The translations under genes were made by a program, and so were the position numbers. A DNA stretch of 64,000 nt from Bacillota bacterium (GTDB lineage: Bacteria; Bacillota; Clostridia; Christensenellales; Aristaeellaceae): assembly GCA_023409955.1 (NCBI GenBank), contig JAEYQQ010000131.1, positions 2,853 to 66,852 on the forward strand. Direction: 5' to 3'. The notes under the pieces are model-generated. The model did not search any database and had not been told where the DNA came from. It worked only from the letters and a program-made list of their open reading frames with translations. Shown piece by piece: positions 56,412-63,254 of the stretch. Every line of letters begins with the position of its first letter. Position 1 is the stretch's first letter.

Positions 56412-57512
56412 ATGGCTGGATATAAAATATGTGTATATGCCATTTGCAAAAACGAGGCAATGTTTGTAGACCGGTGGATGGATTCCATGAGCGAGGCTGA
56501 CCTTGTTGTGGTAACGGATACCGGCTCCACTGACGGCACGGTGGAAAAGCTGAGGGCACGGGGGGCGAAGGTTTTTGTCCATCCGGTGAAGCCCTGGCGT
56601 TTTGATGTTGCCAGAAATGTATCTCTTGACAATCTGCCCCCGGATACGGACATTTGTGTTTGCACCGATTTGGATGAGCTGTTTGAAAAGGGTTGGCGGG
56701 CCAAGCTGGAAGCGGCCTGGCTCCCGGATGCGAAGCAGGCGAAATATATTTACAACTGGAGCCTGAAAGAGGATGGGACGCCTTATGTGCAAATGCATTA
56801 TGCCAAAGTCCACGCACGTCAGGGGTTTGTATGGCAGGACCCCGTACACGAATGGTTGAGCTACCGGGGAACGGAGCCTAAAGTCACAGTATTTGTAGAA
56901 GGTATGGTGCTCAATCATTATCCGGATGATGCAAAATCCCGTGGGTCCTATCTTCCGCTTTTGGAGCTGGGGGTAGAGGAAAGCCCGTTTAGTGACCGGC
57001 TGAGGTATTATCTGGGCCGAGAATATATGTACAAGAGCGAGTGGGAGAAGTGCATTGATACCTTAAAGGCGTATTTGAAGCTTCCCACAGCCACATGGAA
57101 TGAAGAGCGGAGTGCTGCCATGCGCTGGATTGCAAAATCCTATCATCAAATGAACAATCAACCTGAGGCGTATGCATGGTACTACCGGGCTATTGCAGAA
57201 GCGCCTTATATGCGGGATGCGTATGTGGAATGCGCCAAAATGGCCTATCAGCTTTCAGATTGGCCAACCGCATTTTTTATGGCGGAGGAAGCGCTGAAAA
57301 TCCGGGAACGTTCTAAAACCTATGTGAACATGGGTTATTCCTGGGATCATACACCAAATGACCTGGCAGCCATTGCCTGCTTCCAGCTGGGAATGTATGA
57401 GCGGGCGGCAGACCATGCCCAGGCAGCATTATTGATGACCCCGGAAGACGAAAGGCTGAAAATCAACCTAAAGCTGATACGGGAAAAGATCAATGGCCTA
57501 GCAAGCATATAG
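56412..57512 (+). CDS. glycosyltransferase (GT-A N-terminal domain) with C-terminal TPR-like repeats, paralog 2
   Basis: KICVYAICKNEAMFVDRWMDSMSEADLVVVTDTGSTDGTV, CTDLDE; tandem to paralog 1. Confidence 0.7.
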   Translation: MAGYKICVYAICKNEAMFVDRWMDSMSEADLVVVTDTGSTDGTVEKLRARGAKVFVHPVKPWRFDVARNVSLDNLPPDTDICVCTDLDELFEKGWRAKLEAAWLPDAKQAKYIYNWSLKEDGTPYVQMHYAKVHARQGFVWQDPVHEWLSYRGTEPKVTVFVEGMVLNHYPDDAKSRGSYLPLLELGVEESPFSDRLRYYLGREYMYKSEWEKCIDTLKAYLKLPTATWNEERSAAMRWIAKSYHQMNNQPEAYAWYYRAIAEAPYMRDAYVECAKMAYQLSDWPTAFFMAEEALKIRERSKTYVNMGYSWDHTPNDLAAIACFQLGMYERAADHAQAALLMTPEDERLKINLKLIREKINGLASI

Positions 57513-57743
57513 CGACATGGAATGATATGGCAATTGGGAAACTGGATTGCAAAAAGCAACGCCTGCGCTAGGCGTTTGATGCATAGCGCAGGCAGTGCGA
57601 TACAAGAACTAAGTCAAATGTCAGTAAATCAAACGAGCTCCCTGTTTTTTTAAACCATCTCTCAAATCATTGTTTTGCATTCACCGACTTGATCCAAAAC
57701 TAAACCATTTGGCAAGTACACACAAATTTTTCCCATTTAGGGG

Positions 57744-57772
57744 TTGACAATTTTATGGCAGAATGGTAATCT
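57744..57772 (+). promoter_or_regulatory. sigma-70-type promoter for ABC cassette leader
   Basis: TTGACA, 17 nt, TGgTAATCT. Confidence 0.55.
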
Positions 57773-57829
57773 GATTCCGCTGGTGAACATCACTGCGCCC
57801 TAAATTGAAGGAAAGGAGGCACGAACTCA

Positions 57830-57931
57830 ATGACAATCAATCGAGCAAACAAACTGGCAATCGGTTTTGGAATTCGACAGATGGGCAGAGATCGTGTCTC
57901 TGCAGCATATAACTTCAAATTGGGCGCCTAG
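57830..57931 (+). CDS. 33-codon leader ORF (not in ORF track)
   Basis: AAAGGAGG 10 nt before ATG; MTINRANKLAIGFGIRQMGRDRVSAAYNFKLGA; lies between promoter and leader terminator. Confidence 0.4.
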   Translation: MTINRANKLAIGFGIRQMGRDRVSAAYNFKLGA

Positions 57932-58040
57932 TGCTAAGATACGTGGAATGACGAAGCACTTGGTGCATAGTCTGACCACGCCATGATTGTCAGCGAAATA
58001 GCGGGATACCTGTGATACATGGGTATATGCGAGCTTTTTC

Positions 58041-58073
58041 ACGGCGGGGTTGTATAACCACCGCTGTTTTTTT
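58041..58073 (+). terminator. intrinsic terminator inside leader (attenuator) upstream of ABC genes
   Basis: ACGGCGGGGTT-gtat-AACC(a)CCGCTGT, about 11 bp with one bulge, then TTTTTTT; ABC RBS follows 30 nt later. Confidence 0.65.
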
Positions 58074-58115
58074 GCGCAAAAAAGATCTAGGCAGACCATG
58101 TAAGGAGAAAACGCC

Positions 58116-60377
58116 ATGAAAACCCACATTCCCGAGTACATGCTATCGGCCTTTCAAAGCCAGGGCATTGATGCCCAAAAGCTGATCTACGCCATTCATG
58201 CTGATATGGCGCTGGATGGCAGCCATGCCGACACGTATGCGGCCATTGACAAAGAGCATCTGTATATCCTCTATGGTTTAGAGAAAGTGGTGAAGGTTAC
58301 CGGGGCCCGGCGCATTGTGTCGGCCTATGAGCTTCACAGCATGGATACCTTTGCGCTCAAAGACCTGGGCGAACTAAAATGCGAGCGGCTTTTATCCACC
58401 GGCCGGATGTATAGTGAAAAGGATGGCGATGCCAAAATCCTCATGCTTTTCTCCGTGGGATATTTGTCCTATGTGGAGCGGCTGATCAAGGCTGTTCAAA
58501 ACATTCGCAATGGAATTGACCCATTGACTGAAATCCTTGTGGATGAAGAGCTTTTCTGCAACAAGTGCGGCACGCGGTATCCAGAGCCGGAGCGCAAGCT
58601 TTGCCCCAAGTGCATGGACAAAAAGTCCATTTCCATGCGGCTTATGGGCTTTTTCAAAGATTACTGGCGCAAGGTACTGGTGATTTTCCTGGTCATGCTG
58701 GGGAGCACGGTTTTCTCCATCGCAACGCCTTATGTCAGTACCAAGCTGCTCTTTGATGATGTTTTGGTGGAGGGCGGCCAGTATTATGGCCTGGTATTGG
58801 GCATTGTAGGCATGATCCTGCTGGTGAGGGTGCTGGGCGTTAGTATGAATATACTGTACTCCTATGTTCTGTCCCGTACTGTGCCATGGATCGTATACGA
58901 TTTGAAGGTGAAAATCTTTGAGGCGATGCAGCGGCTGTCTGTTGGCTTCTATACCTCCAAACGCACCGGCGCGCTGATGAACCGTATCAATAAGGATGCC
59001 ACCAACATTTATTGGTTCTTTGTGGACGGCCTTCCCTATGTGGTGATGAATGTACTTACCTTTTCGGGCGTTGTCACCCTTATGTTCACCCTCAACACCA
59101 CCCTGGCGGTGATCTCCCTGGTGTTTATCCCCGTTGCGATTTTGCTGTTTCGTATATTGTGGGGCGTTTTCCGGCGCTTCCACCACAAAAACTGGGTGTA
59201 TGGATCGCAGCTCAACGCCATGGTATCCGACTCTGTCAACGGCCAACGGGTAATCAAGGCCTTTGCCCGGGAGGATGACGAGACATCCCGGTTTATGGAT
59301 GTGGGCAACAAACAAGCGGGTGTTGATGCAGCGTCCTTAAATGTTGGATTTACGGCCTTCCCGCTGATATATCTGTTCATGTTTGCAAGTCAGGTGGCGA
59401 TAACCATTGTGGGCGGCATGATGGTGCTAAGGCAGGAGATCAGCGTCGGTATGCTGCTTACCTTTATTGCATACCTGCAAATGCTTCACGGGCCGCTGGA
59501 GTTCATGTCCTGGGTATCCAACTGGTGGGCCCGTTGCGTAGATGCTGCCCAACGTGTATTTGAGATCATCGATGCCAAGCCGGATGTGGCGGAGCCGGAG
59601 AATCCCATTGCGCTGGATCACTTTGCCGGCCGGATTGATGTTAGCAACGTATGGTTTGAATATGACCCGGCAACACCTATCCTAAAGGGCATTGACCTGC
59701 ATGTGGAAGCTGGCAAGATGCTGGGAATTGTAGGCAAGACCGGTGCGGGAAAATCTACCCTGGCGAACCTGATTGCCCGGTTGTACGATGTCAACCAGGG
59801 CAGTGTAAAAATCGATGGCGTGGATGTTCGCCAGCTTTCGCTGAAGATGCTGCGCGGCAGTATCGGTATCGTGTCACAGGATATTTACCTGTTTATTGGC
59901 ACCATTGCAGATAACATCCGTTATGCCAACCCCGGCGCAAGCATTGAAGATGTGATCAGAGCTGCCAAGGCTGCTTCGGCCCATGATTTTATTATGAACC
60001 TGCCGGATGGCTATGAAACCAGGGTGGGCGCAGGCGGCCAGGATCTATCCGGTGGTGAGAAGCAGCGGCTGTCCATTGCCCGTACCATTATTCAAAATCC
60101 CAAGATTCTTATACTGGATGAAGCTACGGCGGCCATGGATACAGAGACCGAGGGCAATATCCAGCTGGCGCTGGCCAAGCTGCAAAAGGGCAGAACCACC
60201 ATTTCCATTGCACATCGCCTGTCCACCTTGCGGGATGCCGATAGTCTGGCAGTGATCAGCGAGGGGAAGGTTGTGGAAACCGGTACCCATGCAGAGCTTA
60301 TTGCCAAGAAGGGCGAGTATTACAAACTTTACAACATCCAGATGGAGGGGCTGAAAGTCATTTCCATGGAAGCGTAA
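58116..60377 (+). CDS. ABC exporter half-transporter (TMD-NBD) with about 170-aa N-terminal soluble domain ending in a zinc ribbon
   Basis: 753 aa, AAGGAG 8 nt before ATG; CNKCG-x11-CPKC at 58557..58613; six TM helices; GKTGAGKST, LSGGEKQR, ILILDEAT. Confidence 0.9.
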   Translation: MKTHIPEYMLSAFQSQGIDAQKLIYAIHADMALDGSHADTYAAIDKEHLYILYGLEKVVKVTGARRIVSAYELHSMDTFALKDLGELKCERLLSTGRMYSEKDGDAKILMLFSVGYLSYVERLIKAVQNIRNGIDPLTEILVDEELFCNKCGTRYPEPERKLCPKCMDKKSISMRLMGFFKDYWRKVLVIFLVMLGSTVFSIATPYVSTKLLFDDVLVEGGQYYGLVLGIVGMILLVRVLGVSMNILYSYVLSRTVPWIVYDLKVKIFEAMQRLSVGFYTSKRTGALMNRINKDATNIYWFFVDGLPYVVMNVLTFSGVVTLMFTLNTTLAVISLVFIPVAILLFRILWGVFRRFHHKNWVYGSQLNAMVSDSVNGQRVIKAFAREDDETSRFMDVGNKQAGVDAASLNVGFTAFPLIYLFMFASQVAITIVGGMMVLRQEISVGMLLTFIAYLQMLHGPLEFMSWVSNWWARCVDAAQRVFEIIDAKPDVAEPENPIALDHFAGRIDVSNVWFEYDPATPILKGIDLHVEAGKMLGIVGKTGAGKSTLANLIARLYDVNQGSVKIDGVDVRQLSLKMLRGSIGIVSQDIYLFIGTIADNIRYANPGASIEDVIRAAKAASAHDFIMNLPDGYETRVGAGGQDLSGGEKQRLSIARTIIQNPKILILDEATAAMDTETEGNIQLALAKLQKGRTTISIAHRLSTLRDADSLAVISEGKVVETGTHAELIAKKGEYYKLYNIQMEGLKVISMEA

Positions 60378-60439
60378 TAACGGCTTCCATCCGCCAAATC
60401 CGCCCTGTTATCTGCTAAAAAAATGTGGAGGATCAACGT

Positions 60440-60985
60440 ATGCAAACCGTTGCAGCAAACAGCATGCAAAGTCTATCAGATGCCATTGACATTGGGTTTC
60501 TGGAGGTAAGTCAGGCTAAGTTCTTTAAAACTGAAGGCGGTTTTACGGGGCTTCATTACAAAGGGACGGAGTACAAGCGCATTTGCCTTCGGCGGGCGCT
60601 GCCCCTTGGTGATCCCAGCGGCTTTATCTCCATTGCAGATCATGAGAACAAGGAGATCGCCATCATCCGCAGCCTTGCCGATTTTTCGGGCGAGCAGCTT
60701 CAAATTGTGCTGGATGAGCTGGATAGCCGGTATTATTGCCCCCAGATCCATGAGATCAAGTCCATCAAGGATAAGCTGGGCTATGTGTACATGGAAATGG
60801 TTATCGGAGGCAAGGATGGTAAAAGTGAAAGGACTTGTGCCATCAAGGATGTGAACAGGAATATCCGCATGCTGAAAAATGATAAGCTAATCATTTTTGA
60901 TGTGGATGGAAACCGGTATATCATCCCCTCACTGGAGGGTCTGGAAAAGAAGAGCCTGAAACGTTTGGAGCCATTCCTTTTCTAA
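60440..60985 (+). CDS. small soluble protein, DUF1854-like (from memory)
   Basis: ATG 60440 seven nt after GGAGGA (track start 60425); 181 aa; ...RRALPLGDPSGFISI.D..NKEIAIIRSL..., IIFDVDGNRYIIPSLE. Confidence 0.55.
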   Translation: MQTVAANSMQSLSDAIDIGFLEVSQAKFFKTEGGFTGLHYKGTEYKRICLRRALPLGDPSGFISIADHENKEIAIIRSLADFSGEQLQIVLDELDSRYYCPQIHEIKSIKDKLGYVYMEMVIGGKDGKSERTCAIKDVNRNIRMLKNDKLIIFDVDGNRYIIPSLEGLEKKSLKRLEPFLF

Positions 60986-61051
60986 GCCAGGCCAAGCTGC
61001 TGGAAAAGGTTGAAGCTGTGCCCTCTTTCGACCAGGTTAGGAGTTGATTTT

Positions 61052-63205
61052 TTGAAGGTTTATACCTTTGCCTATGATTTGGGGCTTGATATGAAACCGG
61101 GCTCAGGGGAGCTCCGCTTTGACGAGCAGGGGAGTATTGCCCTTTGGTGGGAAGGAAACCAGTTGGATGCGTTTTCTGCTGAAGGGGTCAAGGAAGCTGC
61201 TGTCATTGCCGGAGTGGGCTGCGGTCAGTTATTTGTCACCATGGCGGATGATACAGAGAAGGTGCTTTGCCGCTTTACCATGTCCGGGCTCAAGGACGCC
61301 GGGGAATTTTGCAAGATCGTCAACTACTATGTACAGACCAAAATCCCCCTGATCCCGGATGAAAAGGAAGTGCATGTTTGCGAAACCTGCGGCCGGCCGC
61401 TGGTCGAGGGCATGAAGATATGCCTTTTCTGCTACAACAAGCGCGGCTTGCTAAAACGTACGGGAAAGCTGATGAAGCCTCATGCCAAGAAAATGATATC
61501 CTCTCAGCTGTTCATGACGCTTTCCTCTGTGCTGTATCTGTTGGTACCGCTGTTTAATAAGATACTCATCGACAATTACCTGCAGCCGCTTAAGGGCACC
61601 TTGGGTGATATACTTGCCCTGGGGCTGGGCATGCTGATGGCCAGGGTGCTGGGAGAAGTGATCTTTATTCTCAGCGCCAGGGTCTATAATCGCTCTACTG
61701 TGGCATTCTCCAATGAACTTCGTACCATGACCTATGACAAGGTGCAAAAGCTCTCCATGACATCCCTTGCCAAGCGTACCCCCGGTGATCTCATCCGCCG
61801 GATCATGGAGGATACAAACACCATCAAGGATTTCATGACCGACGCAGGACGCTGGGCAGTGGAGCAGAGCATCACCTTTGTGGTGGTAATGACGGTTCTG
61901 CTGTTAACCAATTGGAAGATGGCCTTGCTGGTCTTCCTGCCTGTGCCTATCGTTATGGTGGTACTGTCCAGGTTCTGGAAGTATATCCACGTACGGTATG
62001 AGCGGCAGTGGCGGAAAAATTCCAGGTGCCAGTCCATCCTCCATGACATCATACGAGGCATCCGTACCGTAAAGGCCTTTGGCAATGAGGATATCGAGAT
62101 CGCCAAGTTCTCCAAAGCCACAAAGGAGTTGGCGCAGGTATCCTCCGATAATGAGGCCATGTGGTCGATTCTGTTCCCCAGCATCACCTTCTTCACAGGC
62201 ATTGGTGAGTTCCTGGTGCTATACTTTGGCGGCCAGGCTGTGCTTGGCGGAACCATGAGCATTGGTACGCTGACCCTGTTTGTGATGTATATCAACTATA
62301 TCTATGCACCCCTTCGCTGGTTGGTATCTTTCCCGCGGTGGCTGGCGGATGCCATGACCTCCATGGTGAAGGTCTTTGAGGTGCTGGATGAGGAGCCGGA
62401 TATTGCGGAAAAGGATACCGTAAACAATGTGCCCATCTCCGGCAGTGTTGCCTTCGATGGTGTAACCTTTGGTTACAAATCCTACGAGCCGGTTTTGAAG
62501 GATGTAAGCCTTACCATTAACCCCGGTGAGATGGTGGGCATTGTAGGCCGCTCGGGAACGGGCAAATCCACCCTGATTAACATGCTCATGCGACTGTATG
62601 ACCCCAATACCGGTAAGATTTCCATCAACGGTGCAGATTTGCGGGATATGTCCCCCCGGCACCTGCACGAGAACATTGGCGTTGTATTCCAGGATTCCTT
62701 CCTGTTTGCTGGCACCATATTCGACAACGTAGCTTATGGTAAGCCTGATGCCACACCCGAAGAAGTCATCGCAGCATGTAAGGCTGCCAATGCCCATGAC
62801 TTCATCATGCAAACAGCGGACGGCTATAACACCCTGCTTGGTGAAGGCGGACATACCATTTCCGGCGGTGAGCGCCAGCGGTTGGCCATTGCACGGGCGA
62901 TTATTAAAAACCCGGATGTATTGATTCTGGATGAAGCCACCAGCTCCCTGGATGTGGAAACCGAATCCTCCATTCAACAAAGCCTTAACAACTTAACCAA
63001 AGGCCGCACAACAGTGGCCATTGCCCATAGGCTTTCTACCCTGCGCAGCGCAAACCATCTTCTTGTGCTGGATAAAGGACGGGTAGCTGAGGTGGGTACC
63101 CATGTGGAGCTGCTGAAGAAAAAGGGCATCTATTACAAGCTGGTAATGGCTCAGCGGCAAACCAGTAAGCTTTCCAAGGATGAAAACATCAGTGCCGCTG
63201 GTTAA
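61052..63205 (+). CDS. ABC exporter half-transporter (TMD-NBD) with about 150-aa N-terminal soluble domain ending in a zinc ribbon
   Basis: TTG 61052 eight nt after AGGAG (ATG 61091 alternative; track 61010); CETCG-x10-CLFC; GRSGTGKST, ISGGERQR, VLILDEAT. Confidence 0.9.
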   Translation: MKVYTFAYDLGLDMKPGSGELRFDEQGSIALWWEGNQLDAFSAEGVKEAAVIAGVGCGQLFVTMADDTEKVLCRFTMSGLKDAGEFCKIVNYYVQTKIPLIPDEKEVHVCETCGRPLVEGMKICLFCYNKRGLLKRTGKLMKPHAKKMISSQLFMTLSSVLYLLVPLFNKILIDNYLQPLKGTLGDILALGLGMLMARVLGEVIFILSARVYNRSTVAFSNELRTMTYDKVQKLSMTSLAKRTPGDLIRRIMEDTNTIKDFMTDAGRWAVEQSITFVVVMTVLLLTNWKMALLVFLPVPIVMVVLSRFWKYIHVRYERQWRKNSRCQSILHDIIRGIRTVKAFGNEDIEIAKFSKATKELAQVSSDNEAMWSILFPSITFFTGIGEFLVLYFGGQAVLGGTMSIGTLTLFVMYINYIYAPLRWLVSFPRWLADAMTSMVKVFEVLDEEPDIAEKDTVNNVPISGSVAFDGVTFGYKSYEPVLKDVSLTINPGEMVGIVGRSGTGKSTLINMLMRLYDPNTGKISINGADLRDMSPRHLHENIGVVFQDSFLFAGTIFDNVAYGKPDATPEEVIAACKAANAHDFIMQTADGYNTLLGEGGHTISGGERQRLAIARAIIKNPDVLILDEATSSLDVETESSIQQSLNNLTKGRTTVAIAHRLSTLRSANHLLVLDKGRVAEVGTHVELLKKKGIYYKLVMAQRQTSKLSKDENISAAG

Positions 63206-63220
63206 TGGAATCAAAGCGCA

Positions 63221-63254
63221 AAGGCTGTGGGGTGAATTGCTCCGCAGCTTTTTG
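63221..63254 (+). terminator. intrinsic terminator after ABC cassette
   Basis: GGCTGTGG-loop-CCGCAGCT (one G-T pair) then TTTTT. Confidence 0.6.

Follow-up and report, generated by a model that had tools for sequence, protein, structure and literature searches.

The window analysed here is a 64,000-nucleotide (nt) stretch of a Bacillota genome (Clostridia, Aristaeellaceae; contig JAEYQQ010000131.1 of assembly GCA_023409955.1), and our subject is the leader at positions 57744-58115, which precedes an operon encoding two ABC half-transporters and, between them, a DUF1854 protein. Our results suggest that this leader is probably a ribosome-dependent transcription attenuator, in which translation of a small open reading frame (ORF) would set the choice between termination and read-through into the ABC-DUF1854-ABC operon. 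A leader-ORF attenuator had already been proposed in a preliminary description of the window, and the comparative data now support that proposal through the conservation of the reading frame, the placement of its stop codon, a covarying alternative pairing and an identifiable antiterminator. All features described below lie on the forward (+) strand.

The promoter (57744-57772) consists of a -35 hexamer TTGACA at 57744-57749, a 17-nt spacer that closes with TG at 57764-57765 (TGg before the -10) and a -10 hexamer TAATCT at 57767-57772, from which transcription is predicted to start at about 57779. In the alignment of the genus to which the window belongs, TTGACA and TGGTAA are invariant positions, and the layout TTGACA-N17-TGnTAnnnT recurs in other lineages. 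The ribosome-binding site AAAGGAGG, with GGAGG at 57815-57819, lies 10 nt upstream of the ATG at 57830 that opens the 33-codon leader ORF MTINRANKLAIGFGIRQMGRDRVSAAYNFKLGA (57830-57931; stop codon TAG at 57929-57931). The intrinsic terminator (58039-58073) follows 110 nt beyond the stop, with a stem at 58041-58067 and U7 at 58067-58073, and the first ABC gene then begins behind its own Shine-Dalgarno (SD) sequence, AAGGAG at 58102-58107, with an ATG at 58116. The preliminary description had placed the promoter, the leader ribosome-binding site, the ORF and the translation start of the ABC gene correctly; the 11-bp GC-rich hairpin plus T7 that it reported is likewise present, as an 11-pair stem with one bulged A and U7 running to 58073. 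Neither the promoter nor the terminator of the leader is listed by a consensus promoter/terminator pattern scanner, the former because its -10 matches TATAAT at three of six positions only (though the extended TG is present), the latter because its stem is bulged. Nor does this scanner detect anything resembling a promoter in the stretch that separates the terminator from the ABC start (58074-58115), which agrees with the earlier view that the exporter genes are reached only through the terminator.

Because the preliminary description had tied its proposal to the conservation of the small ORF and the terminator ahead of orthologous cassettes, their presence in relatives is of some weight. All 12 genus genomes that carry the cassette have the complete set of promoter, SD, ORF, downstream RNA and terminator in front of the orthologous ABC gene, and the same elements recur with diverged sequence in other genera. 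The 12 genus relatives all share the arrangement of SD and ORF, as do most other lineages. The leader ORF is open in 12 of 12 relatives, while the other two frames hold 1-5 stops in every sequence, and although its length varies (33, 34, 35, 37 or 39 codons) all indels are in-frame. The peptide itself is free to change: variable sites fall almost equally on codon positions 1, 2 and 3 (21, 22 and 23), pairwise codon differences are nonsynonymous far more often than synonymous (641 versus 176), and the ORFs of other genera encode unrelated peptides of 9 to 60 codons. What is retained across this divergence is the position of the ORF. An SD-led ORF of at least 9 codons that stops 10-30 nt before the hairpin we call P1 (described below) occurs in 10 of 13 lineage representatives, where 0.47 would be expected from shuffled leaders. 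In the window the stop codon lies 13 nt from P1; in most other lineages the distance is 23-29 nt.

At the level of sequence, then, the leader is conserved as a reading frame and not as a peptide, and we infer that it is translated. The codon-position statistics, together with the unrelated peptides, argue that translation per se is what matters. The alternative offered in the preliminary description, that the basic 33-residue product is a functional micropeptide, is contradicted by the equal variation at the three codon positions and by peptides that differ wholly between genera. The C-terminal half of the genus peptides does look conserved (R-N/D-R-V-S...N-F-I-x-G-A), and this can be attributed to the RNA, which pairs there with the 5' untranslated region (5'UTR), the SD and the strands B and C of P1. 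In locus L043 (~1360-1450) a 10-codon SD-led ORF is accompanied by a second ORF of 21 codons, MKWRIERDWVKFALRRHRNHA, which spans the entire P1 hairpin and stops immediately after CCACGCC; this second ORF may be fortuitous.

The element that would connect the ribosome to the terminator is a switch strand, A-ext (GGCGCC-UAG-UGCU, 57923-57935), which includes the leader stop codon and pairs with B and C at 57955-57967. Hairpin P1 (57942-57980; fold -14.5 kcal/mol), the proposed anti-antiterminator, is built from a basal helix CGUGG/CCACG, a middle helix GAC/GUC and an apical helix GCAC/GUGC, with B at 57955-57960 and C at 57962-57966. The partners of A-ext are both strands of the P1 apical stem, and pairing of A-ext with B and C therefore excludes that stem. 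In the window the A-ext duplex is worth -19.1 kcal/mol (p = 0.007 against shuffles), or -17.6 kcal/mol when folded as a hairpin. Across the genus alignment P1 is 94-100% paired, and the A-ext pairing is kept in 95% of cells, with compensatory changes at three pairs. In the divergent genus member L022 the P1 apical stem is broken, but the A-ext:B pairing is maintained by three compensatory changes.

The same relationship is found beyond the genus in other sequence. The architecture of P1 is the same in other lineages and the sequences of its helices differ; in other genera AGUGC:GCACU is replaced by AGCGC:GCGCU, UGCG:CGCA or GUGCGCG:CGCGCAC, and GGCGCC:GGUGC by GGCA:UGCC or GGCAA:UUGCC. Duplexes between A-ext and the interior of P1 range from -15 to -24 kcal/mol and, when tested against shuffles, are significant at p < 0.05 for about 14 of the 21 sequences. 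In every lineage examined A-ext starts no more than about 6 nt past the first base of the leader stop codon. When the two states are scored as wholes on the genus alignment, the ON structure (A-ext:BC plus antiterminator) is paired in 95.6% of cells with seven compensatory pairs, a result that none of 500 shuffles equals and that slid controls, at 31-46% paired, do not approach. The OFF structure (P1, variable hairpin and terminator) is paired in 95.9% of cells, with compensatory changes in the variable hairpin only. P1 is independently marked as an OFF structure by several other lineages (L044, L047, L067 and a termite-gut group comprising L051, L055, L065, L068 and L072), in which it is directly trailed by U5-6 (CCACGCUUUUU) in the manner of a terminator. 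In the termite-gut group a conserved GCGGGG hairpin without a U tail, then a second hairpin with U6, are also present about 150 nt before the ABC start at 1501, and the number and position of terminator-like elements thus vary between lineages.

The link from P1 to the terminator is provided by the candidate antiterminator, whose 5' strand GACCACGCCAUGA (57974-57986) overlaps the 3' strand of P1 and pairs with UCACGGCGGGGUU at 58039-58051, the 5' arm of the terminator. That arm would thus double as the 3' strand of the antiterminator. Among 211 upstream windows tested against the terminator 5' arm in the genus, GACCACGCCAUGA is the best (-14.4/-15.2 kcal/mol); the P1 3' strand is likewise the top partner of the arm in three other lineages, and in the remaining ones the best partner usually still lies within P1. 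Pairing of the antiterminator stands at 99% across the genus, and L022 shows one compensatory change, from AU to CG. Where the preliminary description had suggested folding the RNA to locate an antiterminator, such a search thus yields a good candidate. The weak candidates it had itself put forward, CAGCG and AGCGG around 58001-58016 against the terminator 3' arm, do not hold: they lie inside a separate covarying hairpin at 58001-58030, and their pairing with the 3' arm is not conserved. A second rejected candidate is the pairing of GCCCU in the 5'UTR with the terminator arm, which is specific to the window.

This variable hairpin (-11.4 kcal/mol, compensatory changes at three pairs) is followed by the invariant GCUUUUUCAC with U5 at 58035-58039, and the segment 58001-58039 as a whole may act as a spacer or, more speculatively, as a pause site. 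The terminator folds with -17.6 kcal/mol (-15.5 kcal/mol when scored over 58039-58073), is 98% paired in the genus and keeps its 5' arm, GGCGGGGU, across genera; it is predicted to be functional. Its U-tract can also pair with a downstream A-run (UUUUUUU-GCGC-AAAAAA, 58067-58083), and the equivalent of this pairing, UUUUUGUAUGCAAAAA, is conserved in most genus relatives.

Upstream of the switch, the leader folds back on its own start. In the minimum free energy fold of the window leader and in the RNAalifold consensus, a 5'UTR strand (57795-57823) made up of GCGCCC (57795-57800), UUGAAG (57805-57810) and the SD-bearing GGAGGCACG (57815-57823) pairs with a later stretch, the ORF's 3' part (57893-57927), which supplies the anti-SD CGUGUCUCU (57893-57901), CUUCAA (57913-57918) and GGGCGC (57922-57927). 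Of the three helices, GCGCCC:GGGCGC and GGAGGCACG:CGUGUCUCU are maintained through GU/GC exchanges in the RNAalifold consensus of 12 relatives; the third is UUGAAG:CUUCAA. The whole 342-nt leader folds better than all of 100 dinucleotide shuffles (z = -3.35).

These elements can be assembled into a mechanism. Transcription would begin at the conserved promoter near 57779, and the strong SD would drive translation of the 33-codon ORF. A ribosome following close behind RNA polymerase would arrive at the stop codon and mask A-ext, whereupon P1 would fold and retain the antiterminator strand, the terminator would form and transcription would end at 58073. The footprint of a ribosome reaches about 13 nt downstream of its A site. 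A ribosome that is late, or stalled upstream, would instead leave A-ext free to capture the apex of P1 (B and C) during its emergence; the 3' strand of P1 would then be freed to pair with the terminator 5' arm, and polymerase would continue into the ABC genes. Slow initiation, translation inhibitors or a scarce charged tRNA could each have this effect. Once transcribed, the 3' part of the ORF would fold onto the SD and limit later ribosome loading, so that only the first ribosome would take part in the decision. As to the direction of the switch, our most plausible reading of these pairings is that a completed ORF would give the OFF state.

The energetics of truncated transcripts are in keeping with such a switch in the genus. 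For transcripts that stop short of the terminator 3' arm, the antiterminator conformer is more stable than the P1 conformer by 3.5-11 kcal/mol as long as A-ext is free; once A-ext is masked, 10 of 12 sequences show either a tie or an advantage for P1 of at most 2.7 kcal/mol. Masking A-ext shifts the balance by +5 to +10 kcal/mol in 12 of 12.

Several observations nevertheless weigh against an attenuator of this kind. Full-length equilibrium folds with a ribosome mask at many different codons always form the terminator, and any switch must therefore be kinetic. In local folds cut before the terminator 3' arm, the terminator 5' arm becomes only slightly more or less available when A-ext is masked, and across 18 lineages the effect is inconsistent, upward in 11, downward in five and unchanged in two. 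A greedy heuristic for co-transcriptional folding with a barrier threshold gives a mixed picture: a ribosome at the stop codon yields P1 and the terminator, the absence of a ribosome yields no terminator, yet not by way of the proposed antiterminator, and a stall at codon 28 produces A-ext:B but the terminator as well. The antiterminator contains two conserved mismatches and owes its covariation support to the single compensatory change, and some lineages have the interior of P1, not its 3' base, as the strongest match for the terminator arm. One lineage, L054, has the RNA and no clear ORF. Whole-leader folds cut before the 3' arm are noisy in many lineages, with varying terminator-arm partners and spurious long-range pairs to the 5' end.

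Given a leader that is read by ribosomes, one question is what slows them. It is possible, though on the whole unlikely, that the leader senses the charging of tRNA-Asn and so amide nitrogen: a ribosome pausing at asparagine (Asn) codons would arrive too late at the stop codon, and the operon would be switched on. In 19 lineage representatives 10.1% of the leader residues are Asn, as against 3.2% in the adjacent ABC proteins, and AAY accounts for 46 of 456 in-frame codons as against 28 of 874 out-of-frame triplets (3.1-fold, p ~1e-11). The same 19 representatives are also richer in His and Arg, and poorer in Asp and Glu. The Asn codons cluster 6-7 codons before the stop, where a paused ribosome would just leave A-ext free, and all 11 main-clade sequences have Asn at codon -6 (AAC in nine, AAT in two). 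In addition, the nearest named relatives of the cassette are "cyanophycin metabolism-associated" transporters, and the same genome encodes the cyanophycin synthetase CphA. However, the window leader has no run of Asn codons (3 of 33, one only near the end), and the leaders of some lineages have a single Asn or none. Some of the surplus Asn falls at codon 3, a position at which A-rich codons may do no more than aid initiation, and the positional preference near the stop is statistically weak. No link of the ABC/DUF1854 transporter to asparagine is known, and a search for very N/Q-rich ORFs upstream of the cassette found none in 80 + 40 related loci. A general sensor of slowed translation, as in the bmrB system of Bacillus subtilis, is at least as likely, and for either version the frame-specific AAY bias is further evidence that the leader frame is read. 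If Asn sensing were true, the leader would be a classical amino-acid-type attenuator in Clostridia that switches on the ABC/DUF1854 genes when tRNA-Asn charging falls, and it would tie this transporter family to nitrogen or amino-acid-polymer metabolism.

A different possibility is that the ribosome is not the sensor, and that a metabolite or protein binds the conserved RNA (A-ext, P1 and the G-rich hairpin) and sets the choice between terminator and antiterminator, with the ORF accessory or incidental. The strong structure of the leader, its very high conservation in the genus even in unpaired stretches after the stop codon (e.g., CCAUGAUUGUCAUCGAAAUAGC) and the RNA of L054 with no clear ORF would all fit a riboswitch-like element, which we nonetheless hold to be quite improbable. 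Across genera the conserved nucleotides are all located in the alternative helices and the unpaired loops vary, which leaves no evident ligand pocket. Unrelated as the ORFs are, their stop codons keep a conserved placement relative to the switch strand; the codon bias is frame-specific, and there is no match in Rfam.

We consider it very unlikely that the leader works by nascent-peptide arrest of the ErmCL/TnaC/SecM type, in which a peptide motif would, in response to a drug or metabolite, stall the ribosome at or near the stop codon, and the stalled ribosome would remodel the RNA. Arrest would be favoured by the C-terminal half of the peptide, which looks conserved in the genus, and by the 13-nt distance from the stop codon to P1, at which a held ribosome would touch the base of the hairpin. 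That conservation is accounted for by the RNA pairing with the 5'UTR/SD and B/C, however, and neither the codon-position and substitution counts given above nor the unrelated peptides of 9 to 60 residues in other genera agree with a selected motif; with the stop codon 23-29 nt from P1 in most other lineages, contact between the ribosome and P1 is not general. Equally hard to credit is the absence of any regulation, with a structured 5'UTR, a leaky terminator and a small ORF encoding a micropeptide or nothing: the equilibrium folds do give a terminator in every state, but both of two pairings that exclude each other are conserved and show compensatory changes, the stop codon does not fall at random, selection on the peptide is absent and the operon lacks its own promoter downstream of the terminator.

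The attenuator we favour is restricted in its distribution. In a sample of 200 genomes of the family, the leader DNA was found at 73-76% identity in all four genomes of the genus, and outside the genus it had no match. A search with the N-terminal domain of the first ABC protein reaches further: 22 of 401 family genomes carry an orthologous cassette, among them 11 of the 12 further genus genomes in the sample, and so do 235 stretches from species-representative GenBank genomes, all of them uncultured Clostridia whose sources are digesters, termite guts, rumen or enrichment cultures. Two covariance models were used, R1 built from the genus and R2 broader. Their matches lie only immediately upstream of the first ABC gene, at 28 of the best 80 of the 235 GenBank stretches, and the motif is single-copy in the window's own genome. 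Weak R2 matches (24-31 bits) in other families, and one in the own genome, were rejected as generic GGCGGGG...CCCCGCC-U terminators that lack P1. Among 40 DUF1854 loci from other families of Clostridia there was no consistent combination of leader ORF and terminator, which indicates that the leader is specific to one clade of cassettes. A search of Rfam 15 over 57300-58400 returned no family, only two chance-level matches (E = 3.6 and 4.2) that lie outside the element and far below the gathering scores. As judged from these searches, the leader appears to be an RNA family absent from Rfam and new within ribosome-mediated transcription attenuation.

Among known systems, the closest in logic appear to be the leader-peptide attenuators of the trpL type, and the closest in gene context appears to be bmrB-bmrCD. 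Like the trp leader of E. coli, the leader described here has a short SD-led ORF just behind the promoter and a stop codon in or next to a strand with two alternative partners; in both, completion of the ORF would mask that strand and give the terminator, a ribosome held upstream would give the antiterminator, and the decision would be a kinetic one made through coupled transcription and translation. A summary of the trp-type logic is available (PMC4191407). The present leader differs from that type in that it has no run of codons for a single amino acid, only an approximately threefold enrichment of Asn, and in that a relay hairpin, P1, is inserted between the ribosome-sensitive strand and the terminator, with four successive alternative helices in the genus. 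The 3' part of its ORF folds back on its own SD, and the genes it precedes encode a transporter and not biosynthetic enzymes. T-boxes normally carry out amino-acid sensing in Clostridia, and to our knowledge leader-peptide attenuators have rarely been described there.

The bmrB (yheJ)-bmrCD system of B. subtilis shares with the leader an ORF and an intrinsic terminator ahead of genes for a heterodimeric ABC exporter. Its sensor is proposed to be the ribosome, with read-through when translation is slowed; the 53-codon ORF itself contains the terminator and three alternative stem-loops, and induction requires translation (PMC4191407). In contrast, the ORF described here ends (57931) 110 nt before the terminator, our model predicts read-through without translation, and the cassette has a DUF1854 gene and N-terminal zinc-ribbon domains. 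Since the published layout differs in having the terminator inside the ORF, we regard the leader as an apparent analogue of bmrB and not a member of its family. The preliminary comparison with bmrB therefore stands as far as an analogous attenuator is concerned, but does not extend to homology. The ermC and cat-86 leaders also use a short ORF whose occupancy by a ribosome re-pairs the downstream RNA; those leaders, however, control access to a ribosome-binding site through drug-specific nascent-peptide stalling, whereas here termination would be controlled and the peptide is not conserved.

If correct, the model would add a leader-peptide attenuator from uncultured Clostridia and a new cis-regulatory family, one in which several successive alternative helices connect the ribosome-sensitive strand to the terminator as a multi-step relay. 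Because its strands are defined, it is also a testable RNA model. It gives, in addition, a handle on the ABC-DUF1854-ABC transporter, which is frequent in Clostridia: a conserved ribosome-sensing leader would indicate that the transporter is wanted when translation slows, possibly when Asn-tRNA is scarce.

The operon itself begins with the first ABC half-transporter gene (58102-60377 with its SD; coding region 58116-60377, 753 amino acids (aa); Pfam ABC_membrane and ABC_tran). It continues with the DUF1854 gene (60425-60985, 186 aa; PF08909, E = 3.7e-30) and the second ABC half-transporter gene (61010-63205), which starts at 61010 (TTG) or alternatively at 61052. A terminator, GCUGUGGGG-UGAAUUG-CUCCGCAGC followed by U5 (63224-63253, z = -3.76), stands 19 nt past the second ABC stop, where it closes the operon, and, like that of the leader, is missed by the pattern scanner. 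The best NCBIfam match of the first ABC protein is NF052233, the "cyanophycin metabolism-associated ABC transporter", and the two ABC proteins of the cassette score 528 (the first) and 508 bits against a cut-off of 880; the DUF1854 protein scores 61 bits against NF052234, whose cut-off is 150. By these sequence scores the cassette proteins are best regarded as relatives, not equivalogs, of NF052233 and NF052234. Both kinds of system combine an ABC half-transporter that has an N-terminal extension with DUF1854, but here the half-transporters form a heterodimer pair, the cassette is unlinked to cphA, and the scores fall well below the curated cut-offs. On the basis of mutant fitness data, DUF1854 has been put forward as a subunit of an amino-acid-polymer exporter (bioRxiv 10.1101/072470).

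The N-terminal extension of the first ABC protein comprises about 175 aa (58116-58655), is conserved across genera and ends, directly before the first transmembrane helix, in an invariant zinc-ribbon-like motif CxxC...CxxC (C148, C151, C163 and C166). DUF1854 genes are present in 71 of 400 sampled genomes of Clostridia, some of which carry two or three copies, and most of the sampled copies sit behind an ABC gene of 720-790 aa, a length which implies that the long N-terminal extension is the rule. The window's genome is a 3.09-Mb metagenome-assembled genome that is 89% complete. Its CphA is a bona fide cyanophycin synthetase (TIGR02068, 1165 bits against a cut-off of 850), encoded on another contig (G000 contig C101:18436-21018, locus L115) and not linked to the cassette. 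Upstream of the leader, a hairpin AACGCCU-GCGCU-AGGCGUU at 57558-57593, with a chance-level Rfam match only (COG2908 RNA, E = 3.6), lies downstream of a glycosyltransferase-TPR gene and probably terminates that upstream transcription unit weakly.

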